In this document: positions 8,234 through 23,581 of the stretch, in pieces
Layout: each line of letters opens with the position of its first letter
Numbering within the stretch: position 1 is the stretch's first letter
Virus record (IMG/VR): IMGVR_UViG_3300028127_000003
Strand: one strand, 5' to 3'
Source: a virus
DNA: 64,000 nt
Translations under genes and position numbers: made by a program
Notes under the pieces: model-generated
The model's database searches: none
The model's input: the letters and a program-made list of their open reading frames with translations, nothing else
Told to the model about the DNA's origin: nothing

Positions 8234-8262
8234 ATTATACTTAAAAAAACTAAATTGTTTAT
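8234..8262 (-). promoter_or_regulatory. Putative class-2 promoter ATAAAC-N17-TATAAT
   Basis: Exact 17-nt spacer; upstream of the cytidylyltransferase-rmlB unit. Confidence 0.6.
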
Positions 8263-8651
8263 ATTTTATATTTAGATCTATACCACTTGATAAGAATACT
8301 TGCAGTGCTGTAGTTGGTAGCCAAGGGGATGTCATGGACATCGCAAAGTCTCATTAGCATTGATATATCTACATCATGTGGATGTTTATCTAGAGGGTCT
8401 CTCATGAATATTACGCCTGTGATTTCTCCTCTAACTACCATTGCCGCTATTTCAGCATCTCCACCTAGAGGACCACTTTGAACAGTAGAAACTCTATCAA
8501 TTCCAGCATGCTCTACCTTTTTCCCCGTAGTTCCTGTGGTAACTATGTCTACTGCATCACTGTTAAAGAAATCTAATCTCTTAGATACAAATGCTACCAT
8601 GTCTGCTTTTTTGTTATCGTGCGCAATTAATGCGAATCTCATCTTGTCCAT
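8259..8651 (-). CDS. mgsA: Methylglyoxal synthase
   Basis: ALIAHDNKK, TTGTTG, SGPLGGD, FMRDPL..HPHDVD...L.RLCDVHDIPLATN..TA: all MgsA catalytic motifs are present. Confidence 0.93.
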   Translation of the reverse strand: MDKMRFALIAHDNKKADMVAFVSKRLDFFNSDAVDIVTTGTTGKKVEHAGIDRVSTVQSGPLGGDAEIAAMVVRGEITGVIFMRDPLDKHPHDVDISMLMRLCDVHDIPLATNYSTASILIKWYRSKYKI

Positions 8652-8718: not shown

Positions 8719-10590
8719 TTACCAGCTAGCAGCCCATACAAATTCAAAGTTATGTTTCTTACAAAACTTTTCAATCATATCTGAAACCTTAGCTTGAGCA
8801 GCTTCGTACTTAGCGTAATCTCTTCCATCTATAATATTATAAGCGCTTTCTCCATATTCATCAGGATGTCTTAATTCTCTTGGCTCGTCAGTCTTATAAT
8901 AAACTTTCTTTTCAGCCGTTCTAATATAAGGCATTCTTAATTCTATTCTTCTATGTGCTTTTCTTCCGCTTGCCTTTGCGATGTCATATTGCTTTTCGAT
9001 TCTTGGCTTTAATCTAGTCCATTCGGCTAATATTTTATCATTAGCTTTAAAACCTGCTAGGATAGTTTTCATGTCAAATTCTACTCCGTTTACTCTTTTG
9101 TAATCTTTGAAAACTCCAACTACATCATCCATAAATTTATCAAAGCTAGAAATAGATTGATAAGAACCATGTACAGTTCCCATACCCCAATCATCTTCTA
9201 CCTTTCCAGTTGATACTTTTTTGGTTCCATTGAATAATTTTGCAAATGAATAATTAGGTTTACGCGTTGAGTTGTTAGACTGAAACTTAAATACTTCATG
9301 TTTCCATGATTTTCCTCGAAGCTCAATGCTCAAACATAAGTTACCTCCATAATTCCATTCTGATCTATAAACTCTACATTTGAATTGAATTTTTGGAAAT
9401 TCCTTTTTTAAACGTTCAGCCATTTGTAAACCATTACCGAAGTTAGATTCTCTTTTGTATGCTTCTTTACATTCTTTAGATTTTCTAGCAATAGCTAAAA
9501 CCTTACTTATTGTATAGTATGTTTCTGAATCGAATATTTCATCATCTGTTTCTTTATCTAAAATAACATCTTCATTAATAGATTTTAAATGAGTCAGTTT
9601 AGTGGATGTTGATTCTGCAAATGCTTCAATATCCCATTGGATTCTTTGCATTGGATCATCACCTCTAAAGTTTTTCTCAACCCAATCAATAAGACCTGGT
9701 TCGAATTGGGCGTTTTGTGCCATATCATAGGCATTCTTCCAACCGTCGTTTGATGCAACGTCTTCTAACCATTGGTCATATTTCCTTTGAGTCCATCTTA
9801 CTTTCTTAACAGCTTTCTTATGAGGACCAGCTCCTAATGTTGACTTTACAGTATTATAATGGTCTGGACCAGCAAATACGCCTTCTGCCCATTCTTGATC
9901 TCTTTTATTACCGTCCCAATATTTAATTTCTTTTCTGAATCTTCTTAGTGAATAATTACCACCTTCAATTTGTTTACGCTTTGTTACTTCTCCTTGTCTG
10001 TAACCTATTTCAATCTTCTTTTCTTCGGCAGTTTTAGGATCCATTTCAAAATGTAAAGATTTTACTAAATCTGCAATACCGTCAAACTTACCTTCATTAA
10101 CCGATTCTAAAATAATAGAATTTAGCTTTACTTCTTTATTAAATCTAGCGCTGCGTACATCGTCAGTTACTTCTAACTTAACACCATACATTGCAGTTAA
10201 TTTTACCTTTACTTTTTTACCATTATGTTCTGCTTCAAATTCTTTAAATGCATTTGCCTGTCGGCCATAATCCGTAATTTCATAGTTTCCATCTTCTGTA
10301 TCAAATATAGTACCGATGCTAATTTTATTAAGAACTCTTGCACCCATCATAGATATTTTAGAAGAAGATATTGTTTTACCTTCATCAAGTGATCCGAAAG
10401 ATTCAAATGATATAATGTTTTTCATTTCGCGTTGTTTCTTTTTATTTCTCTTCTTCTTATACTCTTCTTCGGCATCTCCTTTTCCGGCTGGAATATCCCC
10501 TGATCCAACTGATGTTTCAGATGGTAAAGAGACTTCTCCCATTCCGGCCATATCGCCAAGTGATAAGTTTTCGTTTTCGTTTAATTCCAT
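8719..10590 (-). CDS. Putative head-internal modular protein (623 aa)
   Basis: CTS-like MKNIISFESFGSLDE near the N-terminus; internal ESVNE and HLKSINE linkers; no catalytic motif recognised. Confidence 0.5.
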   Translation of the reverse strand: MELNENENLSLGDMAGMGEVSLPSETSVGSGDIPAGKGDAEEEYKKKRNKKKQREMKNIISFESFGSLDEGKTISSSKISMMGARVLNKISIGTIFDTEDGNYEITDYGRQANAFKEFEAEHNGKKVKVKLTAMYGVKLEVTDDVRSARFNKEVKLNSIILESVNEGKFDGIADLVKSLHFEMDPKTAEEKKIEIGYRQGEVTKRKQIEGGNYSLRRFRKEIKYWDGNKRDQEWAEGVFAGPDHYNTVKSTLGAGPHKKAVKKVRWTQRKYDQWLEDVASNDGWKNAYDMAQNAQFEPGLIDWVEKNFRGDDPMQRIQWDIEAFAESTSTKLTHLKSINEDVILDKETDDEIFDSETYYTISKVLAIARKSKECKEAYKRESNFGNGLQMAERLKKEFPKIQFKCRVYRSEWNYGGNLCLSIELRGKSWKHEVFKFQSNNSTRKPNYSFAKLFNGTKKVSTGKVEDDWGMGTVHGSYQSISSFDKFMDDVVGVFKDYKRVNGVEFDMKTILAGFKANDKILAEWTRLKPRIEKQYDIAKASGRKAHRRIELRMPYIRTAEKKVYYKTDEPRELRHPDEYGESAYNIIDGRDYAKYEAAQAKVSDMIEKFCKKHNFEFVWAASW

Positions 10591-10593
10591 ATC

Positions 10594-10911
10594 TTAATAT
10601 TCAAATGGTGGAGTTCCATAATCATCTTGTTCGATGCCATACCATACTCCTGATACTTGTAAATACCACCATCCATATTTAGTGTCGTCTACTACTTTAA
10701 ATTTCTTAGGTAATTTAACAGATTTTTTTGGAGCTCTAGCAATATACTTTAAAACTGGAACACCATCGTCCCATGTTTTTTTAGTAGATCTTGCTTGAAC
10801 TGATTGTCCATCTGAAAACGCATCAAATGCTTTTGCATCTTCTATTTCATCTGCTAATAAATCGATAGCTGATTCATTAATGTATTGTTCAAATAATTTT
10901 ACTTTTTTCAT
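10594..10911 (-). CDS. Putative small internal (head-packaged) protein
   Basis: N-terminus MKKVKLFEQYINE resembles the T4 capsid-targeting sequence MKTYQEFIAE. Confidence 0.55.
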   Translation of the reverse strand: MKKVKLFEQYINESAIDLLADEIEDAKAFDAFSDGQSVQARSTKKTWDDGVPVLKYIARAPKKSVKLPKKFKVVDDTKYGWWYLQVSGVWYGIEQDDYGTPPFEY

Positions 10912-10912
10912 T

Positions 10913-12247
10913 TTACCAAACTATGTTTTTATTATCCCATTTAGCCATTCTTTGCTTAAGCTCTAGTGCTTTACGCTTAGCATCTCTCATATACCAAGAA
11001 CTTGATGAACCGAATTTTTCTTCTTCAGTTTTCATATTAACGTATGCTGAAACATATCCTTGATAATCTGACAATATATTTGCAATATAATTGGTTAAAT
11101 CTCTAGGTCTAATTTCTCTTCCTTTAGGGTCTTTTCCTATTGTTAATTCGTTATAGTTTCCTAATTCTTTTTTAGCTAAACCAGCCATTAAGAATTGGTG
11201 TGCATCTTCGATAATTTCTTTAACTTTCTTGTCTATTTTATCTGGGTTATCAGCTTTCTTCGCAAGAATATCGTTATACCTTGTTAAGTTATCCTCTTTG
11301 ATTTTCTTAGGGTTTGTAAGTGCAGTAGCTCCAGATTTTGCCTCTGCTCTTGCAGATGTCTTATCATCGGTAGATAAAGAAGCTCTTAATGTGTCTAAAT
11401 TAATAATGTAACATTCGTCAGACATTTCCGCAATTCTTTTAATGTTACCTAATCCCGTTCCACTATATTGGTTGTGTGATTTGTTAACACCGACAGTATC
11501 TTTAGATCCAGGGTATTTACCCATGTTCTTAAGTCTTCTTGTGTTTTTCTTACCACCTATTGTGTCGCTGTTTCTATTCCATATTGAATCGTTCTGAAAC
11601 ATTTCATTTTTTCCATTAGAAACAGCTAATAAACAATTTCCAGGAATCATTTCAACATATCTTCCGGAAGAAGGAGCATATTCATTTTCTTTTTCATTTC
11701 TAGAAATCCAAAATACAATTACGTTTCCGAATGTTTTTGCTTTCTTATAAACTTCAACTGGGTTGCTATTAGAAATTATCATATCATCGGTAACTTTATC
11801 TAGTGCTACTTTAGCAAGACCGTATATACCTTTAATTAATTCCTTACCACCTTTTTTGATGTCTATTAATCCTCTTAACTTGGAAGAAGCTAGAGCTTCA
11901 TTAAGTTCTAAAGATTCAGTTGCTCTGTATTTTGCAAATTTACCCTTTTTAATTGTTTTAACTAATTCAGCTTCGCTATCGTCCATGTGACCATATACAT
12001 CATTATGTGTTGCTGCGTTTACTATTTCACCAGCATCACCAATAAAATAAGTTCCTCCTGCATATTCGTCTCCATCCATATCTAGATCAAAACCACCGGA
12101 ATCTAATGAATTTTTAGAAATTGTGAATTCTTTTCCGTCTGCTTTTGAAAGAGCAGCTGCTAATTTTTTTGCTATTTTAGCAGTATCTTTCTGCTTCATA
12201 ACCTTTGCTTCATTGATAAAATTATCGAAGTTAGTATATAGTTTCAT
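10913..12247 (-). CDS. Putative head-internal modular protein (444 aa)
   Basis: N-terminus MKLYTNFDNFINE-A, internal ESLELNE-A linker, GATATATA upstream. Confidence 0.55.
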   Translation of the reverse strand: MKLYTNFDNFINEAKVMKQKDTAKIAKKLAAALSKADGKEFTISKNSLDSGGFDLDMDGDEYAGGTYFIGDAGEIVNAATHNDVYGHMDDSEAELVKTIKKGKFAKYRATESLELNEALASSKLRGLIDIKKGGKELIKGIYGLAKVALDKVTDDMIISNSNPVEVYKKAKTFGNVIVFWISRNEKENEYAPSSGRYVEMIPGNCLLAVSNGKNEMFQNDSIWNRNSDTIGGKKNTRRLKNMGKYPGSKDTVGVNKSHNQYSGTGLGNIKRIAEMSDECYIINLDTLRASLSTDDKTSARAEAKSGATALTNPKKIKEDNLTRYNDILAKKADNPDKIDKKVKEIIEDAHQFLMAGLAKKELGNYNELTIGKDPKGREIRPRDLTNYIANILSDYQGYVSAYVNMKTEEEKFGSSSSWYMRDAKRKALELKQRMAKWDNKNIVW

Positions 12248-12271
12248 TTTATATTGTTTTGTTTATAATAG

Positions 12272-12279
12272 TATATATC
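12272..12279 (-). promoter_or_regulatory. GATATATA late-promoter-like motif
   Basis: Exact octamer about 25 nt upstream of ATG 12247. Confidence 0.65.
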
Positions 12280-12281
12280 TT

Positions 12282-15200
12282 TTAATGTAAGGAATCATGT
12301 GCTAATTCATTAGCTAAGTCTGGATTATCATCTGTGAAATCTGATAATTCTTCGTCAGTCATTTCTTTTCCATTAGAATATTCACCATAACTAAAGAATG
12401 CATCTGTGAAATCTGGATAATCTTTCATATCAACATCTTCCATTTCTAATGAACTAATATCTACTTTCTTTCCTTTAAATTTAATATAATTAGCTTCGTT
12501 AATAAAAGATTCTAATGTTAAACTAACAACTGGTTTAATTCCAGTTAATATTCTTTTTCCAAATTTAGAAAGACCAATTCCATTTTCACTTACTGTAAAG
12601 TATTTAGAATTTCTTCTCATCCATCTTTTATTATCGATTGATTTTTCTTTTAGAATATTATTGAATTCTTCTTCTGTTAATACACCATCCGCTAATGCCT
12701 CGATCATTGCGTTTCTGACTTTAGCAGTTCTACCTGAAGTTTGTGCAGGATGATTATCGGTATATCTTCTTTTTATTTGAATTTTAGATTCTCTAAGACC
12801 CGGTTTCATTACGTTTAATTCCCACCACTGTTCTAATTGGTGATAAATATTTGCACCCATGTTTGAAATCATGAAGTCAATTACATCATCATAATTGTCT
12901 TTTTCATCTTGATAAAAACCAGGAGTATCGATATATTCTTTACCCATTATCTTTCTAACTGCTCTTTCTGGCATAGCATCGATTTCTTTTAAAAATTCTT
13001 CGAAATCTTCATCGTTTTTAAAACCCTTAGCTTCAATAACCATTGATTCCATTAGGCCAATAGCAATCTCTCCAACTTCTCTATCGCCGCCGTCAACATA
13101 TCTTTTGTTAAGTATTGCAAATTTAAAACCATCTGCTTTTATCGTATACATTGGCATCATACTATCACTATAGTCGTATTTGTATTTACCTGCTTTTAAT
13201 TCTTTACCGATTGCAAAGAAATCTTTAGCTTTACCTACTAAATCTGCAAGATTATCTAAGTGGTCACCGGCGTCGTCCTTTTCATTAACTAATGATTCAT
13301 AAACTCCTTTTTCAATGTTCTTGATTAAGAGTTTAGCACCCTTCTTGTCAAGTTCATTTTGAATAAAGTCCATCATTTCGTTGGGATCTTCAGCATCTAT
13401 ACCAAATTCAGATGCTAAGTTTTGATATGCATCAAATTCCATATTAGAAATAGTGTCTTCTAAGTCTGCATACACATCTTCATTAACTGCTGATTCTACC
13501 ATTACTAGCCCTATATCCTTATATGCTATTTCATGCTCTCCACCGTCTTGATCTAGTGCAAATACTGATTTATCATGCCACATTGCAGCATTGTCATCGT
13601 TATTAGAATCAGGATTATAAATGATATATTCTTTTCCGTTTCCGGTTTGAATCATTGCATCATCTGCATCTCCTAATTTTTTTAATAATGACTTTTTAGT
13701 ATACCTTTCTTCAACAGCTTCACCTGACGTATATTCAAAATCATTATATAGTGCCTTTAACCATTCTAAAAACTCTGGAGTTTTCTTCATTACTTTCTTA
13801 TGTCCGTATTCTTTAAAGAATTCTTTCTGAAAAGTATCAAATGATTTGTGATTACCTATCATTTGGTGAATGTCAGACATAACACCCTCACTGATAACTA
13901 ATTTTACATCTTTGTTTTTACCAGCTACTGCATCATCTAGTTCATTTGTAAGAGCTTTCTTTTTTGCTGTTAAATCTATTAGCTGCTGTCTAGTTGCTGC
14001 TTTCTCATCACTTCCATCTTCCGCAGCGATGTATATCTTTACAATATCTTTCATCTTATTAACTGTTTCTCCAAATTCCTTTGAAATCTTGTTAATAGAT
14101 CTAGCTTCTAATATATTAGATTCTTCAATGTATTCTCCTAATTCAGGATCGTCCCATCCATTAGGATCGGCTAATACTGATTGTAAATCTTCTCTTGAAC
14201 CTGTCATTTCAACTTCTGGCCAATTGCCACCAGGGCCGTTCATTGTTAAAACTTTCATTTTAACATTATATTTCTTTAAAAGCTTTTTGAGTGTTTTTGA
14301 TTTAGGATCTATTGCATCCATTACTACAGTAGCTTCATTTAAATTTTCGTCTAGCTTATCAAAGAATCCACCATGTTCACTTTGTAAATCTTCACCATAC
14401 TTGTCGTCCCATATTTTAGCTAATTCATCTTTAGTAATTTTACCTTTATATTTTCCCATGATTTCAACATAGACACTACCATATTCATATTCAAAATCTT
14501 CACCATAAGAAAAATCCCATGCCTTTTCAACATCTTTAATTGTAAGCTTTTTGGCTTCAGTAACCTTTGATTCATACCATCCGTTTTCGTAATCGTCATC
14601 ATCTTCATAATCATCATACTCAGGTTCTTGATACCATGATTGATTTGGATCAGATTCTGCTTCTTCAGTAAAGTCATGTCTTTTCCAATTAAATCTTGGA
14701 TCTTCAACTAATGCAGGGAATAATGTCTTTTTCTTTTTATCTTTGGTCTTTATTTTACCGAATGCTAAATCAATACCAAGTTGTCTTAATTCTTTAAATG
14801 AACCTTTCATTGTTTTAACATCTTCTTCAGTATATCCATTCATTGTAGCAACAAGATCATAATAATCCATTCCACCAAATTCACCATATCCTTCATAATC
14901 CTTTTCCGTCCACTTGTTACCCATATTATCATACATAAATACTGTAATCATGTTCTGTCTTTCAGAACCTATTTGTGTGTTTGTATCGGATGTAAGCCAT
15001 GAAAATTGACCTTCAACTATCATCTGTTCATGTAACAATTGAGCACCAGTCGTTACAATGTTTAAATAGCTTTCAGGAATTCCATTTACAAAGTTATGTA
15101 ATTCTGGTTCGAAATCTGGCATACCACATGCATATCTTGGATATGTTGCTCCTTCTGTATTTACAAGAATACTCATTCCATAATACTCTCCAAGCTCACC

Positions 15201-15500
15201 TGATTCAGTGTTACAATATAATACAAATACCTGTGGCACTTGAACTTTAAAGTTAGATTGTAATGGATATTCGTTATGACATCCTAATTCTTTAGTAGTG
15301 TATACGTCTAAGGAATGTAATTCTTTATCATATTTAGTTAATTCTCTATATGGAATAGAAGCTCTTTGGTTAAATAGATCTCCCCAATAAGAAGGCTTTC
15401 TCAAGGAATATTTCCCAGAAACCTTTTTGTATACTTTATATAAATCAACGTTTTCGTTCATTGAATTTACAAAGCTTTCGAATGTTTTTTTAGTGCTCAT
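12282..15500 (-). CDS. Putative head-packaged polyprotein of ~12 small domains
   Basis: MSTKKTFESFVNSMNE N-terminus. Repeated linkers EQMIVE, ESKVTE, ENLNE, ESNILE, VISE, ESAVNE, ESLVNE, ESMVIE, ESFINE. Modules include GQFSW..D...YEGYGEFGGMDYY and D.KDYPDFTDAF, which resemble stand-alone small phage proteins. Confidence 0.6.
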   Translation of the reverse strand: MSTKKTFESFVNSMNENVDLYKVYKKVSGKYSLRKPSYWGDLFNQRASIPYRELTKYDKELHSLDVYTTKELGCHNEYPLQSNFKVQVPQVFVLYCNTESGELGEYYGMSILVNTEGATYPRYACGMPDFEPELHNFVNGIPESYLNIVTTGAQLLHEQMIVEGQFSWLTSDTNTQIGSERQNMITVFMYDNMGNKWTEKDYEGYGEFGGMDYYDLVATMNGYTEEDVKTMKGSFKELRQLGIDLAFGKIKTKDKKKKTLFPALVEDPRFNWKRHDFTEEAESDPNQSWYQEPEYDDYEDDDDYENGWYESKVTEAKKLTIKDVEKAWDFSYGEDFEYEYGSVYVEIMGKYKGKITKDELAKIWDDKYGEDLQSEHGGFFDKLDENLNEATVVMDAIDPKSKTLKKLLKKYNVKMKVLTMNGPGGNWPEVEMTGSREDLQSVLADPNGWDDPELGEYIEESNILEARSINKISKEFGETVNKMKDIVKIYIAAEDGSDEKAATRQQLIDLTAKKKALTNELDDAVAGKNKDVKLVISEGVMSDIHQMIGNHKSFDTFQKEFFKEYGHKKVMKKTPEFLEWLKALYNDFEYTSGEAVEERYTKKSLLKKLGDADDAMIQTGNGKEYIIYNPDSNNDDNAAMWHDKSVFALDQDGGEHEIAYKDIGLVMVESAVNEDVYADLEDTISNMEFDAYQNLASEFGIDAEDPNEMMDFIQNELDKKGAKLLIKNIEKGVYESLVNEKDDAGDHLDNLADLVGKAKDFFAIGKELKAGKYKYDYSDSMMPMYTIKADGFKFAILNKRYVDGGDREVGEIAIGLMESMVIEAKGFKNDEDFEEFLKEIDAMPERAVRKIMGKEYIDTPGFYQDEKDNYDDVIDFMISNMGANIYHQLEQWWELNVMKPGLRESKIQIKRRYTDNHPAQTSGRTAKVRNAMIEALADGVLTEEEFNNILKEKSIDNKRWMRRNSKYFTVSENGIGLSKFGKRILTGIKPVVSLTLESFINEANYIKFKGKKVDISSLEMEDVDMKDYPDFTDAFFSYGEYSNGKEMTDEELSDFTDDNPDLANELAHDSLH

Positions 15501-15520
15501 TTTTATTTGTATTTGTTTAT

Positions 15521-16600
15521 TTAAACTCGGTTAGGCTTTATTTTATATTTAAATTTACCTTGTGTAATAGAATATATTTGTAATTCGCTAGTTTTTCCAG
15601 GTAATTTCTTGTAATAGTGAAAAGCTACTATTTCATGATCTTTAGACTCTATAAAAAGGAATGGAGTAGGTATATCTCCTACTGCTGAAATTACATCGTC
15701 TTGTATTTCAGTAAATGTTCTAACGGAAGGCTCAGTCTCTATTATACTTTTAATTTTTTCTGCAGTTTTAGAGTCACTTAGCTTTCCTAATTCTACGTCA
15801 TTAAATTTAATTACTAATGCGCCGTTATCTTTATCTCCAGGACCTATTTTAAAATCTCTTTCACTAGAAGAAAGGGCCTGAATATCTGTCTTAGTTAAAT
15901 TTTGAATATGCTTAAATCTTTTTCCACCTACAGTTCCCCATTCATTTATCCAACCTCCACCGGCAGCCATATCTTTACCATCTCCGTCCGGGTTGATTTC
16001 TTCAATATTATATTTTACTGCGTCATATAATGCCGTTAACTTCGGTACATAAGTACTATTAATTCCCTGGTGTTTTGCACCTGTTCTCCAATTTTGTAAC
16101 ATGCCCTTTGACATTTGAGCTTCTTTTAACTCACATTTACCAAGGGGTGGTTTAATTGGTGACCACCTTTCATTATATAATTCTAAGTCAGTATCGGCCG
16201 CACCTCCACCTATTTTTATATTTTCTACAATATACGCTAGCATTATTTCTCCAGCACCAATTCCATTATCGTCTCTTCCAATATTAAACAATTCGTTTGC
16301 TTCGCTTTTATTTAACATTAAATATTGAAAAACTACTCCGAATGTATCGTCATCCATTTTAGAAAGCCATAACCTGCCATCAGGTTGTTGTTTAACATCC
16401 TGTGTTGAAGTAAACTTAACACCTTGCCATGGACACTTATTCTTTTTAAATGTTCTATTAATTGAATTAAATAAATTCTGTTGGGCAGATTTACTTCCGG
16501 TCGTTGCAACTCCAATATAGGATTCTATAATTAACGCTTCATTTTCAGCGTTGGTTTTTGCAGCACTATGTAGTGCTCTTTCAAAATCGTACCTATCCAT
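15521..16600 (-). CDS. Putative PD-(D/E)XK-fold nuclease-like protein
   Basis: GIGAGEI.L....GG..DTDL....CELK gives a plausible E...D...ExK catalytic set; N-terminal ALIIE site. Confidence 0.4.
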   Translation of the reverse strand: MDRYDFERALHSAAKTNAENEALIIESYIGVATTGSKSAQQNLFNSINRTFKKNKCPWQGVKFTSTQDVKQQPDGRLWLSKMDDDTFGVVFQYLMLNKSEANELFNIGRDDNGIGAGEIMLAYIVENIKIGGGAADTDLELYNERWSPIKPPLGKCELKEAQMSKGMLQNWRTGAKHQGINSTYVPKLTALYDAVKYNIEEINPDGDGKDMAAGGGWINEWGTVGGKRFKHIQNLTKTDIQALSSSERDFKIGPGDKDNGALVIKFNDVELGKLSDSKTAEKIKSIIETEPSVRTFTEIQDDVISAVGDIPTPFLFIESKDHEIVAFHYYKKLPGKTSELQIYSITQGKFKYKIKPNRV

Positions 16601-18464
16601 TGTTTTCTAAAAATTGTTTAAATGTTAATAATGATTCAGCAACTTCATTTGATTCTGAAGTACCTACTGAATCTTCTAATTTTTTCTTAAGTTCGCCATA
16701 CATTTTATGTAATGCTTTGGGTGTTGTTGACTTAAATAATCCTTCATCTCCGTCTAGCATTGCGTTTCTAACCTGAGTCGCTGAAATATTATTGTCTGTT
16801 CTTGGAATTTCAAATAATCCAAAATCACTCCTAACTCCAAGATCTTCTCTATAAGAATCTTTATTTACTTGGAATCCGTAAGTTTTCATTCTATCGCTTC
16901 CTGTTCCCCATAATACGGGTTCATAAGTTGGTCTCATTGCATTGAACATTGTATCAATACCTCCGGTTGGAATTACAAAGATTTCTTTTAAGAATGGATA
17001 TTGTTTTTGAACCGCCTTAAACATATCTAATTGTGTCTTCTCATCATAAGGTCTTTTAAATGCATCTTCCTTTTTCTTATTCTTTGCTTTTACTAATAAA
17101 ACAACCACAGGATATCCATTTTCTTTGTGTATAGTTTCTAATACTTTAGCATGTCCAAGTGTAAATGGTTGGAATCTACCAACAAACATATTTACTAATT
17201 CTCCTCCTTGTTCAGGATGATCTACTTTAAGTGCTTCATTTAAATTAACACTTGTCTTTACTTTATTATGTAATATGAAATTATTAAAGTCGTATATGGA
17301 ATTTTCATCGGTATTCTCTACAAATACTTTCTTATCTATAGTTTCTACTATTTGATTTAAATGCTCTAACATTTCTGCATTTATGATATCGCTTTCCTTG
17401 CTTCTCTTTTTTCTAAAAGAACCTAAAGTTATTTTAAATAATTCTGCAAGTATTTCGTTTTCAACATAAGAAAGAGTGGTCTCGTTCTTAATGTATTTAG
17501 TATTTAGTTTAAAGGAATCTGAATCTGCAAAATCAGCTGATTCAAAGTTAACACCAATAAACTTAGCAGAGTGTTCTTTAACATACGTATTAAACATCAC
17601 TGACATTAATTCAATATATCTCCAGTCTGCTGTTTCTTCATTTAGTTGAATGTCTTTCATTTCAAATGTAGAAATAAATTCAATAAGACCAGCAATAGTA
17701 ATTTGATACATGTGGCTTGATCTCTTATTTTCACTAACAGTTCTTGTAAAATCTTCTAATTTAAAAGATCTAGATTTTTTCTCATCAATAAAAGAAACTA
17801 TTAATCCGTCAATTTCTACTTCAAAGTCTTCATTTAACGTAGGAGAAACTGCATTTGGATTAAATGTCTTAATCATCTTTTGAGTGAAAGGTAATCTTGC
17901 ATCTGTATTTGGATCATAATCAAATGCTTCAGAAAACTCCTTATCTGACATAGATAAAACACTTATTAATTCTTCTTTTTGCATTTGAGATAGCATACCA
18001 TCAAACACAATGCTAGGTCCTTGAACCTCTAATATCTTTGCCCATTTATTTAATATAATTGGATCGCTAATTGTTTTTCTAATCTTACCTGACTCATTCA
18101 TAGTTTGAATGTGCGTAAGTATTAAATTGTTTTTAGGTAGTTTAGTATATTTATATTCTGACACGTTTAATTCAGGTAAATATTCAAAACCAAATTTCCA
18201 ATCATGTGGCATTTGTTCCTTTATACTAGGATCTAAACTTTGGATGTGCTTGACACCTGTTTCATATAAACCTACTATTGTTCTGTCTATCATGTTCATT
18301 CTAGAATCTCCAGATTTGTAATATTCAAATTTAGTCTGGTTTCTTCTAACGTGAAATGAAGCTCCTTGTATTTTTTCAGTTACTAGAACCCTGCTATTCA
18401 ACATATCTTGAAATGCATTGATATTAGTTTCCTGAAATACTTGTCTTAGTTTTTTAAGTGCCAT
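16593..18464 (-). CDS. Fusion: ligase-superfamily nucleotidyltransferase plus class I (T/H)xGH nucleotidyltransferase (NMNAT/cytidylyltransferase-like)
   Basis: N-half: TEKIQG (motif I), FGFEY, EIDGLIV, SFKL. C-half: FVGRFQPFTLGH and NISATQVRNAM. C-terminal LTFKQFLE. Confidence 0.65.
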   Translation of the reverse strand: MALKKLRQVFQETNINAFQDMLNSRVLVTEKIQGASFHVRRNQTKFEYYKSGDSRMNMIDRTIVGLYETGVKHIQSLDPSIKEQMPHDWKFGFEYLPELNVSEYKYTKLPKNNLILTHIQTMNESGKIRKTISDPIILNKWAKILEVQGPSIVFDGMLSQMQKEELISVLSMSDKEFSEAFDYDPNTDARLPFTQKMIKTFNPNAVSPTLNEDFEVEIDGLIVSFIDEKKSRSFKLEDFTRTVSENKRSSHMYQITIAGLIEFISTFEMKDIQLNEETADWRYIELMSVMFNTYVKEHSAKFIGVNFESADFADSDSFKLNTKYIKNETTLSYVENEILAELFKITLGSFRKKRSKESDIINAEMLEHLNQIVETIDKKVFVENTDENSIYDFNNFILHNKVKTSVNLNEALKVDHPEQGGELVNMFVGRFQPFTLGHAKVLETIHKENGYPVVVLLVKAKNKKKEDAFKRPYDEKTQLDMFKAVQKQYPFLKEIFVIPTGGIDTMFNAMRPTYEPVLWGTGSDRMKTYGFQVNKDSYREDLGVRSDFGLFEIPRTDNNISATQVRNAMLDGDEGLFKSTTPKALHKMYGELKKKLEDSVGTSESNEVAESLLTFKQFLENNG

Positions 18465-18474
18465 ATTATATTAT

Positions 18475-19845
18475 TTATCTTCCGTACTTTATGATTCCCA
18501 TCAGCTGATTGATAGCAGCAAAAGTACCTGTTAGTTTCATAGTCTTTCCTTTATATACAAAAACTATTCCTTCAGTTGGTATGATAGATTCTACTCCTCC
18601 AATTCTATCTAATCTCTCTAGTTCTTTCATTACCTTTTCGATCTGAGTAACGCTTCCATCTTTTTTGATCTTTTCAGATTCTGATCTAATTTGATTATGT
18701 AGTCTTTGCATCTCTTTGTCTGGATTTGCAGCTACAAAATTAGAAGCATTCATAAGAATTATAGACCCTAGTTCTAAAAATAAATCTTCAAACGGTCTAA
18801 TGTTTTCTTTATATTTCTTTTTAACATCTTCTTTGTCAAATTTCTTAACAGAAGCAGCTTCATCTTTTCCTATCTCCTTTGCAAGTGATCTCATATTTAA
18901 AGACTTTTTATCTCCATAAGCCCATCTTAATAATAAACCTTCCTTATAGTCTTGTTGTAAATCTGGGAAATTTGCATCTATTGTTTCTCTCCACCACATT
19001 TCATGATATCTAGAAACTTCGTCACCGTCTGTTAAGTTATAACGATCTCTTAATTTTTCAATCTGCTTTATAAATTTAGCTTGATTTTTATCAAAATTAA
19101 TATCTTTACCTAGTTTTAAAATCTGAGGAGGAATTATTGTAAATGTCTTTTGAACATCGGCATCTACTTCCTTTAAAGCTTTGACTAATTCTCCTGCTAT
19201 TTTTCTAGATCCTGTAATATTACCATTCCCATCAGTTTCTTGAATATCGTGAAATTGAAGAACATCTCTTTCGTAATAGATTACATTTGGGTTTTTAGAA
19301 TAGATTAATTCTATATTTATAAAATCTTTACCGTCATTAAATATGGACTGATCTTTAATTTTTGGAAGAGCTTCATTTAGATCTTTAGCTGCAAACACGT
19401 ATGTTTCTCGCACTAAAGGTACCTCATGCTTTTCAAACATTTCTATAATACCGTCTAAATCAACGGGACTAATTAATTGACCTTTATTTCTAGAAAACAT
19501 CGTAACTCCGTTTTTTACGGTTGCTAATAGATTTTGACCGTCTGTTTTTTCAGTGGCTACCTCTTCAAAGTTTAATTCTCCTTGAAGACCGGACGTTACG
19601 ATCTTTTTAAAATCTGCGAATGTTAAATCTTTTTCATCGAAAGGATGAGACATGTGACCAGCTGCACCGCCTTCTAAGATTAATTCTTCTTTAAGTGTAT
19701 TGTATTTTTCAACGATATATTCGTCAAATGATAAAACTTTACTCTTATTTTCACTCATATAATGTGCAACATATTCCTCTCTGGTCATGCCTTGTGCATC
19801 TGCGTGATGTTGAATAAAATCTACAAAGTTGTTATTTAGTTCCAT
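18475..19845 (-). CDS. Ligase-superfamily (KxDG) nucleotidyltransferase-like protein
   Basis: ATEKTDGQNL (motif I), INIELIY, LQFHDI, TEGIVF and MKLTG (motifs IV/V); LILE-GGAAGHMSHPFD N-terminal region. Confidence 0.6.
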   Translation of the reverse strand: MELNNNFVDFIQHHADAQGMTREEYVAHYMSENKSKVLSFDEYIVEKYNTLKEELILEGGAAGHMSHPFDEKDLTFADFKKIVTSGLQGELNFEEVATEKTDGQNLLATVKNGVTMFSRNKGQLISPVDLDGIIEMFEKHEVPLVRETYVFAAKDLNEALPKIKDQSIFNDGKDFINIELIYSKNPNVIYYERDVLQFHDIQETDGNGNITGSRKIAGELVKALKEVDADVQKTFTIIPPQILKLGKDINFDKNQAKFIKQIEKLRDRYNLTDGDEVSRYHEMWWRETIDANFPDLQQDYKEGLLLRWAYGDKKSLNMRSLAKEIGKDEAASVKKFDKEDVKKKYKENIRPFEDLFLELGSIILMNASNFVAANPDKEMQRLHNQIRSESEKIKKDGSVTQIEKVMKELERLDRIGGVESIIPTEGIVFVYKGKTMKLTGTFAAINQLMGIIKYGR

Positions 19846-19853
19846 GTATATAG

Positions 19854-19861
19854 CTAATATA
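19854..19861 (-). promoter_or_regulatory. Putative host-sigma-type element TATATTAG
   Basis: Same hairpin-T6-NN-TTATATTAG arrangement as at 6296. Confidence 0.35.
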
Positions 19862-19864
19862 ATT

Positions 19865-19898
19865 AAAAAACTTGACCCGGAAAAATCCAGGTCAGTTT
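19865..19898 (-). terminator. Rho-independent terminator
   Basis: TGACCTGGA-TTTT-TCCGGGTCA stem (one G-U pair) followed by T6 on the minus strand. Confidence 0.65.
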
Positions 19899-19912
19899 AT
19901 TTTTATTTTTTA

Positions 19913-22039
19913 TTATAAATATCTATCGATAAATTCTTCTTTGCTACCAACAAATGATCTAGTCTTTGGGCCGAAAAGAACAATCTCAGCACCTTCTGAT
20001 TTAAGCCAATCTGCAACTTTTTGAGCTTTTTTCTTATCAGCTGATAACCATACTGTGTCAAATTCAGGACCATGAGACCTTTGCATTACAATACCTCCTT
20101 TTTCATTTGTAAATTTAAACTTATCTCCAAGAGCAACACTTACTTTAATATTTTTATCAAAATTCTTTTTATGATTCTTAAAAGAATATGCTAAAGCACC
20201 TGAGTAACTTTTAGTGTCAGTTGTAAATTCATCTAAAGATGTAGTAGTACCTTCATAAATATTTGATTCAAATGCTGGAACTAATCCAGTTTCTCCGTAG
20301 ATATCTGCCATCATCCATTTTTTAGAACCTTCATCCCATAAATAAACGAATTCTGCACCACCTTCGTAATTTGCATCTTTAATATATTTGTTAATATTCT
20401 TAACATTACCTTTCATCAGATTAACATCTCCGCCATAGAAATTAATTTTCTTAACGTCTTTATCTAAACCTGAATTATCTCCATTTTTAAGAACAAAATC
20501 TACATTTTTACCACTTTTAAAGGTTGATTTAATAATAGGCAACATGTTTTCAGGATATGAATCATAGTGAGTATATACTGAAGTAATATTTCCTTTCTTG
20601 TCTATTTTACCAAATTGACCTCTAGTTCCTTCATTAATTACATAATTGATTACTTCGTTAAATTTAGATTCTTTTAAAGAAATTTCTTCTTCAGTTAATT
20701 GAAACTTAACTGATTCTTCTACTGCGTTAAATCCTGCTAATAATTTTTCAGCAAGTTTAGATTCACCAATAGATTCTAAATATAGAGCAGTGCCTTCAGC
20801 AACTCCAATACCTGACCATCCGGCAGCATTTGAAATTCTAGAATAATACTCATCTAATATCTGTGATATTTTCTTTGCTCCTACTATAATAGCTTGTTTA
20901 CCAAGAGTTAAAGGATTAACAGTAACACTTCCTAATCTTCCTTTGATAATTTTTTCAGTAGCTGTTCTTTCTCTATGGAAATTAGCATCAGTTAATGCTT
21001 CAGCGTAAATATATTTAATAGCTCCTAAGTGAGAAATTTTATCAGCTGTTAAGCTTCCTAGTTCTGCAAATATTTTATTGTATTGAGTTAATACTTTCTT
21101 TGCATCTCTTTTATATTTAATATCTAAGGCCTCATTCATTAATGATTCTCCTAATCCCCAGTAATTTGCGTGATCGTATTCAACTGGGAATATACCTAAA
21201 TCACCTTCATCACCTTCTTCACTTTTAACAATTTTAGCAAGATAGTAATCTCCCTTTGCAGTATCTTCATATCCGTATGAATCTGCATCTGATCCCATTT
21301 CTTTTTTAAATTGCTTTGATATCTTTCTCCAATTATCGATAGCGATTATTTCAACTTCGCTTCCAATTGAATTTTCAGTAGTATCTCCTACTTTAAATTT
21401 AGCTTTTTCAGTAACTAAAGATTCTGAAAATTCTTCAATATGTTCCATATCGATTTCATCTTCTCCCTTTAATTCTTTTTGTACTTCTTTAGACTTTACT
21501 AATTTTGAAAGATCTTTCATAGTGATTTCTCCATCAATGAAGTCAGCTAGTATATAGTATTGATTAGAAGAATATCCTTCACTGTCTCTAAAATCACCAA
21601 TTTCTTCAATTGCTGCTTTAGTAACGGTCTTAGCTTCAGTAACTAAAGATTCGCTTAATGAATTTCTTAGACCACAGTGTACGCATTCTACCGTTCCGTC
21701 CTTGTCAATTTGCTTATATAAATGTCCTTTTTTATTAGTACACTTTGGTTCGTCTGATTCAGTAACTTCTTCTGATGCAGTAACATCTTCTACCTCTACT
21801 TCTATTTCAGCTATTTCTTCTTCTGAAACATCTCCAAATATTTTTGAGATAATTGATTCTTTCTGATCTTCTTCTAAACCTTCGAAAGAAGTTAATCCTA
21901 ATTCATCTAGAATAGCAGCTATTTTACCAACTGATTCTTGTCTTTTTAAATTGTTTTCTTCTCTAAGTTTACTAACAGATTCCTGTTTTCTAATCTCTGT
22001 AAACGATTTAAATGAAGAAATTTTATTAACTTGTGCCAT
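19913..22039 (-). CDS. Putative head-packaged modular protein (708 aa)
   Basis: ISSFKSFTE N-terminus; linkers ESLVTE (x2), ESLMNE, VINE, ESNIYE. One module has C-x5-H...CxxC; another TRGQFG..SVYTHYDSYPE resembles a common small phage protein. Confidence 0.55.
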   Translation of the reverse strand: MAQVNKISSFKSFTEIRKQESVSKLREENNLKRQESVGKIAAILDELGLTSFEGLEEDQKESIISKIFGDVSEEEIAEIEVEVEDVTASEEVTESDEPKCTNKKGHLYKQIDKDGTVECVHCGLRNSLSESLVTEAKTVTKAAIEEIGDFRDSEGYSSNQYYILADFIDGEITMKDLSKLVKSKEVQKELKGEDEIDMEHIEEFSESLVTEKAKFKVGDTTENSIGSEVEIIAIDNWRKISKQFKKEMGSDADSYGYEDTAKGDYYLAKIVKSEEGDEGDLGIFPVEYDHANYWGLGESLMNEALDIKYKRDAKKVLTQYNKIFAELGSLTADKISHLGAIKYIYAEALTDANFHRERTATEKIIKGRLGSVTVNPLTLGKQAIIVGAKKISQILDEYYSRISNAAGWSGIGVAEGTALYLESIGESKLAEKLLAGFNAVEESVKFQLTEEEISLKESKFNEVINYVINEGTRGQFGKIDKKGNITSVYTHYDSYPENMLPIIKSTFKSGKNVDFVLKNGDNSGLDKDVKKINFYGGDVNLMKGNVKNINKYIKDANYEGGAEFVYLWDEGSKKWMMADIYGETGLVPAFESNIYEGTTTSLDEFTTDTKSYSGALAYSFKNHKKNFDKNIKVSVALGDKFKFTNEKGGIVMQRSHGPEFDTVWLSADKKKAQKVADWLKSEGAEIVLFGPKTRSFVGSKEEFIDRYL
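21407..21652. repeat. 18-bp exact direct repeat TTCAGTAACTAAAGATTC (21407-21424 and 21635-21652)
   Basis: Both copies encode the ESLVTE linker and flank one 76-codon module. Confidence 0.85.
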
Positions 22040-22072: not shown

Positions 22073-23581
22073 CTATATATCTCCGTCAAATTTGACTTTC
22101 TTAATACTATACTCAAATTTCTCTTGTTTATAAATTTTCTGCCTCGCCTTACTATGTTTATATAAATAGTTATCCCATTCGTCAGTTCTAATGTCATCCA
22201 CAAAATCGACAATTAATACAGCTTCTTTAGACTCATGCTGCCTTAGACCTCTACCAATTGACTGCCTGATGATCACCTCGGACTTAAATGACTCTGTAAA
22301 GAATATATTGTGTATTTTCTTAATGGAAATTCCAGTAGAAAATGTACCATAACTCGCTACAATAACTACTTCATCTCCTGCTTCCATTTTCTTTTTATAT
22401 TCTTCTCTAATATCTTTATCTGTTCCTCCATCTACATAAAAAACTCTTTTATCTGAGTTTTGGCGGAGCTGTTCGTATATTTTTTTACCATGTTCTATTC
22501 TATGAAACAGAACTAGAGAGTTCCTAGGGACCTTGCCAACAACATTACATATAAAATTAAGTCTACCAAAAGAATTAATAATATAATTTTGTTCCAGTTG
22601 AAAAACATCCTTCCTATCATACTTATTAAATGCTAATTCTTCAAATGCTTTTTTGGCGGAATCAGGTGCGTAATTCATTTCAATTACTTTTACTTTACAT
22701 TTAGCGATGTGACCCTGACTCTGTAAAAATGCAGCCTTAACTTCGCTAATTACAGGACCCGTTTGACTCATTAGTGTTAACTTGTCTAAAGATCCATCTT
22801 TAGGAATTGTACCCGATAAACCATATTTATATTGTGCACTTGTACATTTTTGTAATATAGTCTTAATAGAATTAGATTTCGCTTTATGAGTTTCATCTAC
22901 AATAACAGCATCGAACTGTTGAAAATATTCTTTAGGCTTTTTAACTAAGGACTGATATGTACCTATCACTACATTCCTGTCTGACTTTATTTTCTGGCCG
23001 GCATATATCTGTTGTATCTTTAGTTTTATTCTATTCTTATTATTGTATTCGTGGAAATCTTCATGGGCCTGAACAACTAGAGAAACATTAGGAACTATAA
23101 ATAATATCTTTTCGGCCTTTTCTTTTTCTAACATATACGCCACTGTTAAAAAACTAATAAGTGTTTTCCCAGCGGAAGTTGCTAATTCAGCTAAACATCT
23201 CCTAAACTTTAGGATATTAAATGCTGTTTCTATTTGATAATCCCTTGGAACAAATTTACTACCCTCAAAAAATTCTAAAGCCCATGCTTCAAATGATTCT
23301 GCACCTATGTTTCTATCAAATAGTCTTTGAATTCCATTAAGTTTAAGATCAAACTTATATTCCTTGCAAATGAGCATAACGTATCTCCAAAGACCGGCGG
23401 GAATCCACTTATCGTCTTTGATGTATGAAACATATCCGTCCCATATTCCTTTCTTGACTAAAGGATTAAATCTCCAACTATCAATTCTTTTAGTTAAAGA
23501 TATTTTAATCTGCTCTAGTTCAAGTTCCTCTGCTTCATCAATTCGTAAGAATTGATTATCATCTGTTAGAGTTAAAATCAA
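22073..23581 (-). CDS. uvsW: UvsW-like SF2 DNA helicase
   Basis: PRDYQ, ATSAGKT, VDETH, GLSGT, YGTFSTGISIK and QSIGRGLR. Confidence 0.92.
   Translation of the reverse strand: MILTLTDDNQFLRIDEAEELELEQIKISLTKRIDSWRFNPLVKKGIWDGYVSYIKDDKWIPAGLWRYVMLICKEYKFDLKLNGIQRLFDRNIGAESFEAWALEFFEGSKFVPRDYQIETAFNILKFRRCLAELATSAGKTLISFLTVAYMLEKEKAEKILFIVPNVSLVVQAHEDFHEYNNKNRIKLKIQQIYAGQKIKSDRNVVIGTYQSLVKKPKEYFQQFDAVIVDETHKAKSNSIKTILQKCTSAQYKYGLSGTIPKDGSLDKLTLMSQTGPVISEVKAAFLQSQGHIAKCKVKVIEMNYAPDSAKKAFEELAFNKYDRKDVFQLEQNYIINSFGRLNFICNVVGKVPRNSLVLFHRIEHGKKIYEQLRQNSDKRVFYVDGGTDKDIREEYKKKMEAGDEVVIVASYGTFSTGISIKKIHNIFFTESFKSEVIIRQSIGRGLRQHESKEAVLIVDFVDDIRTDEWDNYLYKHSKARQKIYKQEKFEYSIKKVKFDGDI
22074..22081 (-). promoter_or_regulatory. 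GATATATA late-promoter-like motif
   Basis: Overlaps the last uvsW codons and TAG; 35 nt upstream of ATG 22039. Confidence 0.6.

Follow-up and report, generated by a model that had tools for sequence, protein, structure and literature searches.

The 1072-amino-acid (aa) open reading frame (ORF) described here lies at positions 12282-15500 of a 64,000-nt stretch of the IMG/VR virus record IMGVR_UViG_3300028127_000003, on the minus strand and not on the plus strand; this stretch is called the window throughout, and positions with the prefix g refer to the whole record. The ORF encodes a string of mutually unrelated modules divided by short linkers, and its product is probably a capsid-targeted cargo polyprotein, processed by the prohead protease of the phage. 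The source is an uncultured marine giant phage.

Results

Linkers and borders

An earlier reading of this DNA from its letters alone had described the ORF as blocks divided by near-identical linkers, and the counts bear this out. The strict motif E-S-x-[VIL]-x-E occurs six times (residues 310, 460, 669, 735, 818 and 997) compared with 0.1 expected occurrences, and a count of six was reached in 0/5000 shuffles. The whole record holds 15 strict motifs within ~56,000 residues, ten of which belong to the 1072-aa ORF and a 708-aa ORF; four of the remaining five are found in ORFs of g119952-g151022, the stretch with the portal, the protease and the capsid protein, and none of the 15 falls within an ORF annotated as a replication or nucleotide-metabolism enzyme. 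When the ORF is taken together with its 150 best relatives (151 members), 276 ES.[VILM].E sites are seen against 10.8 expected, and the consensus of the linker reads [LVIY]-x-E-S-V-V-[TN]-E, then A or G, then K.

When the ORF is divided behind the Glu of all six strict sites and of five further, weaker sites (FVNSMNE at 16, EQMIVE at 163, ENLNE at 389, LVISE at 538 and PGLRE at 904), the result is a leader of 16 residues and eleven modules, M1 to M11, of 66-152 aa. The sequence-only reading had proposed about twelve modules; the modular string stands, and the count is corrected to a leader plus eleven, its list having been without PGLRE/S at 904 and the FVNSMNE/N leader at 16. The modules are given below, with a slash for the predicted cut and with the predicted local distance difference test score (pLDDT) of the AlphaFold model.

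15453..15500 (-), N-terminal leader, residues 1-16, MSTKKTFESFVNSMNE/N, like the T4 capsid targeting sequence
15012..15452 (-), M1, residues 17-163, ends EQMIVE/G; 7 homologues, each immediately behind a leader; low AlphaFold confidence, shallow alignment
14556..15011 (-), M2, residues 164-315 (GQFSW...), acidic, ends ESKVTE/A; the most widespread module; pLDDT ~90-96
14334..14555 (-), M3, residues 316-389, ends ENLNE/A; 9 homologues at varied positions; pLDDT 60-76
14106..14333 (-), M4, residues 390-465 (ATVVMDAIDPKSK...), small beta-alpha-beta-beta-alpha domain, ends ESNILE/A; pLDDT 81-91
13887..14105 (-), M5, residues 466-538 (ARSINKISKEF...), helical hairpin, ends KLVISE/G; pLDDT 93-97
13479..13886 (-), M6, residues 539-674 (GVMSDIHQ...), ends ESAVNE/D; pLDDT 80-96
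13281..13478 (-), M7, residues 675-740, acidic, helical, ends ESLVNE/K
13032..13280 (-), M8, residues 741-823 (KDDAGDHLDNL...), two helices and a small beta barrel, ends ESMVIE/A; pLDDT 87-89
12789..13031 (-), M9, residues 824-904 (AKGFKN...), helical, ends PGLRE/S
12495..12788 (-), M10, residues 905-1002 (SKIQIKRRYTDNHPA...), predicted winged helix-turn-helix fold, ends ESFINE/A; pLDDT 83-94
12285..12494 (-), M11, residues 1003-1072, acidic, C-terminal; 7 homologues

Internal repeats were considered as an explanation of the ORF and ruled out, the modules being unrelated to one another, as had been claimed (best BLAST E between any two 0.003, not significant). The predicted products have masses of 7.5-18 kDa. 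M10 is the only strongly basic module (isoelectric point, pI, 10; net charge +7), M5 is near-neutral (pI 8.2) and the other nine are acidic.

The borders are confirmed by where homologous modules begin in other proteins. Homologues of the modules downstream of the weak linkers EQMIVE, ENLNE and LVISE, which the sequence-only reading had already listed, start exactly at those borders. Seven close relatives were omitted from the statistics of module starts, so that shared flanks were not counted. Among the 260 starts, 216 (83%) are immediately preceded by [VILMFYC]-x-E and 244 (94%) have it within 2 residues, compared with a background of 3.8% per position. Counted from the cut, P3 is L, V or I (218/260), P2 mostly N or T, P1 E, and P1' G, A, K or S. 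The sequence farther upstream varies between cases, and the constraint thus sits at the cut site itself; the aliphatic P3 and the Glu at P1 are the only positions retained in every context, leaders and weak linkers included.

Relatives and exchange of modules

We searched 1.84 billion representative proteins, with clusters at 50% identity, and obtained at least 1944 matches at E <=0.001, of which 803 were at <=1e-10 (metagenomic protein clusters). The matching proteins are 170-1271 residues long, and each aligns with a single query block or a few, the place of the match varying. Module orders in the relatives include M10-M2, M9-M2, M8-M2, M10-M4-M8, M1-M10 and five tandem copies of M4, interspersed with many blocks that are not in the 1072-aa ORF. 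The expectation that modules would resemble free-standing proteins, or have shuffled homologues, thus held: they occur both alone and reordered. Pfam gave almost no matches on 58 + 10 relatives.

M2 is present in 94 of the 150 top relatives, with [VILMFYC]-x-E before all of its starts outside the close relatives (89/89), and is carried by 953 shorter proteins, Tara Oceans proteins among them; an ESM Atlas search with M2 matched nothing usable. M4 has 39 copies among the relatives, up to five of them in tandem (P0083), opens another protein at residue 2 (P0081), and weakly matches phrog_5922, a family of ~85-aa proteins. The 45 copies of M5 occupy varied positions, some immediately behind a leader, and the 49 copies of M10 are frequently the first module behind one. 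For M6 there are 12-20 homologous starts, the majority behind [VIL]-x-E/G. M8 (19 copies) has [VIL]-x-E before 14/14 starts outside the close relatives, and M9 (12 copies) before 10/11.

Where orthologues on further viral contigs share modules, these are 85-100% identical; the orthologues differ by whole modules, always at linkers. In L005, M7 is exchanged for a 108-aa insert and M8 for a 57%-identical version; in L010, 270 new residues take the place of M3-M4, and M6 is joined directly to M10; in L016, M2-M3 and M7-M9 are replaced. M7 is missing from L008, L010 and L016, and an additional 76-aa module stands between M10 and M11 in L008, L016 and L017. The comparison of module order that had been proposed as a check therefore reveals gain, loss and swap of whole modules exactly at the linkers.

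The linker DNA is more uniform than the peptide demands (GAA TCW GTA GTT ACT GAA GCT). Val-Val is written GTA-GTT in 13/13 and 18/19 cases, with a genomic GTT:GTA usage of ~45:44; Ala is GCT in 18/21, and Ser is never AGY. Since the codon sample is small and the sequences are phylogenetically related, the linker may only tentatively be regarded as a recombination joint. In the 708-aa ORF an exact 18-bp repeat, GAATCTTTAGTTACTGAA (ESLVTE), flanks one 76-codon module (residues 130-211, window 21407-21652); together with the uniform codons this hints at recombination at linkers.

Leaders

A leader of the type MK-x-x-K-x-F-E-S-F-[VIL]-N-E starts many family members and at least 8-10 other genes of the record, and [FYW]..[FYW][VILM].E is found near the N-terminus in 45 of the 151 members (first 20-26 residues; match starting before residue 20). 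The capsid targeting sequence (CTS) of T4 reportedly goes back to work by Mullaney and Black in 1996. It reads MKTYQEFIAE (PMC8442874); its residues 4 and 7 are needed for targeting, residues 8 and 10 for processing, and the T4 protease gp21 cuts after L/I-X-E (PMC9026906). Counted from the cut, the leaders match it with an aromatic residue at P7 and P4, an aliphatic one at P3 and Glu at P1.

Leader and linker are equivalent. The internal linker E-S-x-V-x-E equals the last six residues of the leader consensus F-E-S-F-V-N-E, and modules that are borne by linkers in this ORF are found elsewhere right behind leaders: M10 after MKSFEDFLSE/G, M5 after MNKYNHSTINE/A, M8 after the 7-residue leader MENLLNE/K (P0026) and M9 after a 16-residue leader. 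Complete leaders, Met-Lys included, also occur inside chains (P0052 at 370, P0087 at 657 and 1094, P0015 at 485). These are likely to be fossils of gene fusion; they could also be the product of read-through of recoded stops in metagenomic gene calls. Conversely, modules of other polyproteins occur here as separate genes: the 105-aa gene two genes downstream of the ORF matches the final module of P0053 at 80% identity, and many polyproteins that begin with M10 have at their C-terminus a module that corresponds to the large domain of the 444-aa gene. From the internal leaders and these separate genes, the strings look like fused neighbouring leader-bearing genes. The proposal that a single targeting signal loads the whole string is consequently too simple: an N-terminal CTS-like leader is indeed present, but the linkers repeat its end, and relatives hold full leaders internally.

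In a more distant phage (L019, a 247-kb ENA contig) two stand-alone genes bear a CTS-like leader, so that the address is used beyond polyproteins:

L019, 5679-6155, NUDIX hydrolase
L019, 19615-20346, AAA_33/zeta-toxin-like kinase

Protease and head genes

A T4-type head module is present elsewhere in the record, outside the window, with a gp2-like end protector, a portal, a 122-aa gene, a 686-aa protease and a major capsid protein. The 686-aa gene, located between portal and capsid protein (L002:16109-18169, equal to g132108-134168), matches Peptidase_S77 (PF03420, 41.6 bits, cut-off 27) and phrog_207 (E 2e-41 over residues 5-403), and by these matches its product is a predicted prohead protease of the gp21 family. 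The small gene between portal and protease, in the place of T4 gp67/gp68, bears the leader. A 445-aa gene of the head module has a leader and ESMLLE/R at residue 137, and its sole conserved family, phrog_1250, begins at residue 130. The capsid protein starts ...PIIE/SATGINE/AEK, and PIIE/G is also found in the capsid protein of LR756500.1. The protease is fused to a long scaffold-like tail (heptad-like, acidic, crowded with [VIL]-x-E and with a TEEEETEAVEE repeat; compare T4 gp22), and segment 419-479 of this tail is 70% identical to part of polyprotein P0079.

Predicted structure

The full-length AlphaFold2 model, run with a colinear alignment of 58 sequences (a subset of the 150-sequence alignment), has a predicted template modelling score (pTM) of 0.34, and hence no single compact fold is predicted across the linkers, a point on which the sequence-only reading had asked for a check. 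The model is one of beads on a string: M2, M4, M5, M6 and M8 are confident separate domains (pLDDT 80-97), and the segments with pLDDT <50, which include 13-21, 114-162, 294-319, 454-465, 528-539, 669-681, 730-741, 820-826, 893-925 and 996-1046, hold 10 of the 11 cut sites (the site at 163 directly adjoins 114-162). We take these low-confidence linker segments to be flexible. A second model of residues 824-1072, made with an alignment centred on M10, dips again at the 904 and 1002 borders (904 corresponds to model residues 81-87).

M10 is predicted to have a basic winged helix-turn-helix fold. Its model aligns with the MarR-type 7el2_A at a VIA-align Z of 8.5 (root-mean-square deviation 2.2 A over 63 residues), and winged-helix DNA binders of the MarR and PadR types dominate the match list, although a Z of ~8 is within the range of common arrangements; Foldseek E values for M10 were >=0.1. 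Foldseek searches of the PDB with the whole model and with the C-terminal model gave nothing at E <=0.001, and weak likenesses to small domains (KH, ACT, Sm) were set aside as not interpretable.

Island, operon and promoter-like motifs

The 1072-aa ORF is the fifth gene of a tight operon (708, 456, 623, 359 and 1072 aa), and three further genes of the module pool (444, 105 and 623 aa) follow it, in an island that spans window 8719-22039.

19913..22039 (-), second polyprotein, 708 aa, five strong linkers
15521..19845 (-), 456 aa (ligase-like), 623 aa (ligase-like plus NMNAT-like cytidylyltransferase-fold domain) and 359 aa
8719..12247 (-), 444 aa (leader MKLYTNFDNFINE/A), 105 aa (leader MKKVKLFEQYINE/S) and 623 aa, same module pool
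22074..22081 (-), promoter-like 8-mer GATATATA, 42 nt upstream of the 708-aa gene
12272..12279 (-), second GATATATA, right behind the 1072-aa stop codon, 32 nt ahead of the 444-aa gene

The linkers of the 708-aa protein are ESLVTE/A, ESLVTE/K, ESLMNE/A, ESKLAE/K and ESNIYE/G, and it has modules in common with 16 members of the pool. The ligase-like 623-aa protein matches PF01467 and phrog_3041; its NMNAT-like domain stands behind NLNE/ALKV, a predicted cut site, and recurs behind LVNE/ALKV as a module of P0038. The two ligase-like nucleotidyltransferase genes of the island are adjacent (window 16593-19845, minus strand), and the NMNAT-like domain, C-terminal in its protein, contains GRFQPFTLGH. 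A ready-made NAD-salvage or RNA-repair enzyme borne in the capsid would be unusual.

The 8-mer GATATATA has 31 coding-strand occurrences and 2 on the opposite strand; for 28 of the 31 an ORF starts within the next 120 nt, mostly 31-42 nt away. It precedes the protease, tail, fibre and baseplate genes as well as the 708-aa and the 444-aa gene; in the window it occurs (TATATATC on the plus strand) at 12272, 22074, 26379, 26609, 27749, 34728, 43112, 49654, 49970, 56973 and 58420. The T4 late promoter TATAAATA was considered and is not the motif here, from which GATATATA differs. The copy at 22074 probably drives the operon that includes the 1072-aa ORF, and as the motif is shared with virion genes, we infer late co-expression. 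A second upstream element of ~40 nt, TTATCTCAGA-N3-TTTTGCTTATATTAGTATAGTAAT, has 10 occurrences, mainly ahead of small ORFs without matches, and probably represents an early promoter class; its positions, outside the window, include g34962, g40836, g138800, g156648, g157938, g163952, g165057, g167800 and g174043.

The record and the phage

The record comprises 178,737 bp at 33% G+C, with an estimated completeness of ~59% and almost all genes on one strand. Other genes of the window encode a split DNA polymerase, a ribonucleotide reductase, a helicase, a primase, an alpha-glucosyltransferase-like protein and sugar-nucleotide enzymes, along with baseplate and fibre proteins. A 130-aa ORF at window 8259-8651 (minus strand), beginning MDKMRFALIAHDNKK, may encode a methylglyoxal synthase, a family that it resembles. 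The phage is placed solely by its major capsid protein, which shares 52% identity with that of LR756500.1, an uncultured 462-kb phage, and 38% with the capsid proteins of the Prevotella Lak phages.

The 1072-aa ORF recurs unaltered on 3 further IMG/VR contigs. Fusion through sequencing or gene calling was excluded as its source, because several contigs carry the identical frame, open under the standard code. No relative was detected among 50,697 deposited phage genomes (tblastn, megablast), and Pfam and PHROGs returned only sub-threshold or unnamed matches (DUF6329 at 19.6 bits, cut-off 26.8; phrog_5922).

Discussion

The presented data favour the earlier proposal that the head protease cuts this polyprotein, which we regard as probable, and none of the computational tests able to refute it did so. 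The linkers fit the L/I-x-E rule and mark module borders in hundreds of unrelated settings, a gp21-family protease is predicted in the same genome, leaders and linkers are interchangeable, the modules are shuffled and also occur alone, and no compact fold is predicted; loading by one signal is the part that needs revision. The anti-defence role proposed for the payload is at most conjectural, as the modules belong to no known family, one of them being a basic winged-helix fold and most being acidic.

The following sequence of events could be envisaged. The polyprotein would be made late, together with the virion proteins, and its T4-CTS-like leader, and probably the CTS-derived internal linkers as well, would bind the scaffolding core of the prohead. 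Once activated, the gp21-family protease would cut after the Glu of each [VIL]-x-E linker, thereby removing the 16-residue leader and freeing eleven folded proteins of 7.5-18 kDa. These should exceed the size that can exit the shell, and would therefore, like the T4 internal proteins, stay behind with the DNA and most likely accompany it into the host. The linker may double as a joint for gain, loss and exchange of modules between phages, and the string itself would have arisen by fusion of neighbouring leader-bearing genes.

Several observations weigh against this interpretation. The majority of the modules are acidic (pI 4.1-5.4) whereas the T4 internal proteins are basic. The bare [VIL]-x-E is short, and its 25 occurrences in the ORF are close to the 19 expected, so that specificity would have to depend on the longer ES-x-V-x-E context and on the position of the borders. 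One border, at 389, falls outside the low-confidence segments, in a moderately confident stretch. Among the modules the sole functional lead is the middling winged-helix match of M10 (Z 8.5). The island is situated ~20 kb from the head genes, amid genes for replication and DNA modification. Finally, the uniform linker codons mean that common descent or recombination adds to the conservation of the motif.

The acidity of most modules would also suit an explanation in which the head protease does cut the string, and the pieces shape or fill a large capsid as prohead core or filler, comparable to T4 gp22, gp67 and gp68 or the inner body of phiKZ-type phages, instead of acting as effectors. The conservation of M2, at 70-80% identity over very many phages, points to housekeeping, the protease tail, itself scaffold-like, has a segment in common with the module pool, and the closest capsid relatives are those of huge phages (LR756500, 462 kb, and the Lak phages). 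However, the modules are predicted with confidence to be folded proteins of 7.5-18 kDa and not coiled-coil scaffold; their turnover among near-identical phages would be unusual for assembly parts; and enzyme modules take part in the same system (the NMNAT-like domain, and the leader-bearing NUDIX hydrolase and kinase of another phage). We consider core or filler proteins unlikely.

The linker might instead serve an uncleaved multidomain protein, as a structural connector or as a repeated motif that docks onto some partner such as the scaffold. The published gp21 rule does not include the E-S at P6-P5, and the virion RNA polymerase (vRNAP) of N4 and some polyvalent proteins are packaged unprocessed (PMC5512222). 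Yet the two positions kept universally, aliphatic P3 and Glu P1, are exactly the protease rule, modules occur alone and start at the residue after the Glu (P0081), and the linkers lie in low-confidence, presumably flexible segments, which makes a permanently intact chain quite improbable. It is more doubtful to a high degree that the linker is kept chiefly at the DNA level, as a recombination joint for cassettes whose likeness to a protease site is incidental. The biased codons (GTA-GTT, GCT, no AGY Ser), the exact 18-bp repeat around a module of the 708-aa ORF and the swapping of modules at linkers would all be accounted for, but dissimilar weak linkers and leaders still retain P3 and P1, the codon sample is small and phylogenetically related, and roles in recombination and in cleavage are compatible with each other.

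The preferred reading, a cargo polyprotein cut by the prohead protease, can be compared with four kinds of known systems. Mature T4 internal proteins are roughly 8.5-21 kDa, and the product sizes predicted here (7.5-18 kDa) are close to them. IPI, IPII, IPIII and Alt of T4 (PMC9026906, PMC3012670, PMC8442874) likewise have a short leader whose P7 and P4 are aromatic, P3 aliphatic and P1 Glu; in both cases the genome has a gp21-family protease, and highly variable cargo follows a conserved address. They are, however, separate genes whose products are each cut once, whereas up to eleven units and eleven predicted sites share one ORF here; the modules have no sequence similarity to the T4 internal proteins and are mostly acidic, and the phage lineage is far from the T-even phages, its nearest capsid being that of the uncultured 462-kb phage, followed by the Lak phages.

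The polyvalent proteins that Iyer, Burroughs, Anand, de Souza and Aravind described in 2017 from phages and conjugative elements (PMC5512222) are alike in joining 2-15 unrelated domains in one polypeptide and in their mosaicism, and packaging in the capsid, delivery with the DNA and processing into pieces have been proposed for them (PMC5512222). Their hallmark domains include MuF, a zincin-like MPTase, ART, PBECR and InPase, and they are thought to be processed by an embedded peptidase (PMC5512222). Pfam detected no such hallmark domain or embedded peptidase in the ORF or in 67 relatives, only CTP_transf_like and DUF5824, once each; here a separate enzyme, the prohead protease, would do the processing in trans, at regularly recurring linkers.

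Several cuts after Glu by a gp21-family protease, with some fragments staying in the head, are also known for T4 gp22, gp67 and gp68 and for head proteins of phiKZ, 201phi2-1 and SPN3US (PMC9026906, PMC5694885, PMC10052503). There the cuts mainly destroy scaffold or long propeptides and leave one mature fragment, whereas every interval here is a folded, shuffled module; the motif of the phiKZ group, S/A/G-x-E, is not matched either, given the L, V or I at P3. Polyproteins of eukaryotic RNA viruses and retroviruses are similarly encoded by a single ORF and divided by a viral protease at regular sites between functional units, but they carry replication and structural machinery in fixed order, while the units here are accessory, interchangeable and variable in number, in a tailed double-stranded DNA phage. 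In none of the compared systems does a prohead protease act in trans on a regular, portable linker that separates independently shuffled cargo modules, and full-text literature searches found no description of such polyproteins.

We offer as a real possibility, though short of a probability, that the 1072-aa ORF represents a widespread cargo-cassette system of marine giant phages with a T4 core, in which a CTS-derived six-residue peptide serves as both cut site and recombination joint. Small proteins and enzymes (winged-helix DNA binders, NMNAT-like proteins, NUDIX hydrolases, kinases) would be spliced in, packed in fixed proportion, freed in the capsid and delivered ready-made to the next host, where they would work ahead of phage gene expression, host defences being one of their targets.

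In conclusion, proteins carried in the capsid act ahead of phage gene expression, when restriction and other defences decide the infection, and such cargo has so far been known as single genes, namely the T4 internal proteins, Dar of P1 and the vRNAP of N4, or as polyvalent proteins that bring a peptidase of their own. The arrangement could serve as a natural model for engineered phage capsids that carry several cargoes, and its sequence rule delimits at least 1944 clusters (50% identity) as a very large set of candidate injected proteins. If the interpretation is true, it would explain how a single address lets giant phages load dozens of small proteins, and how these are exchanged quickly.

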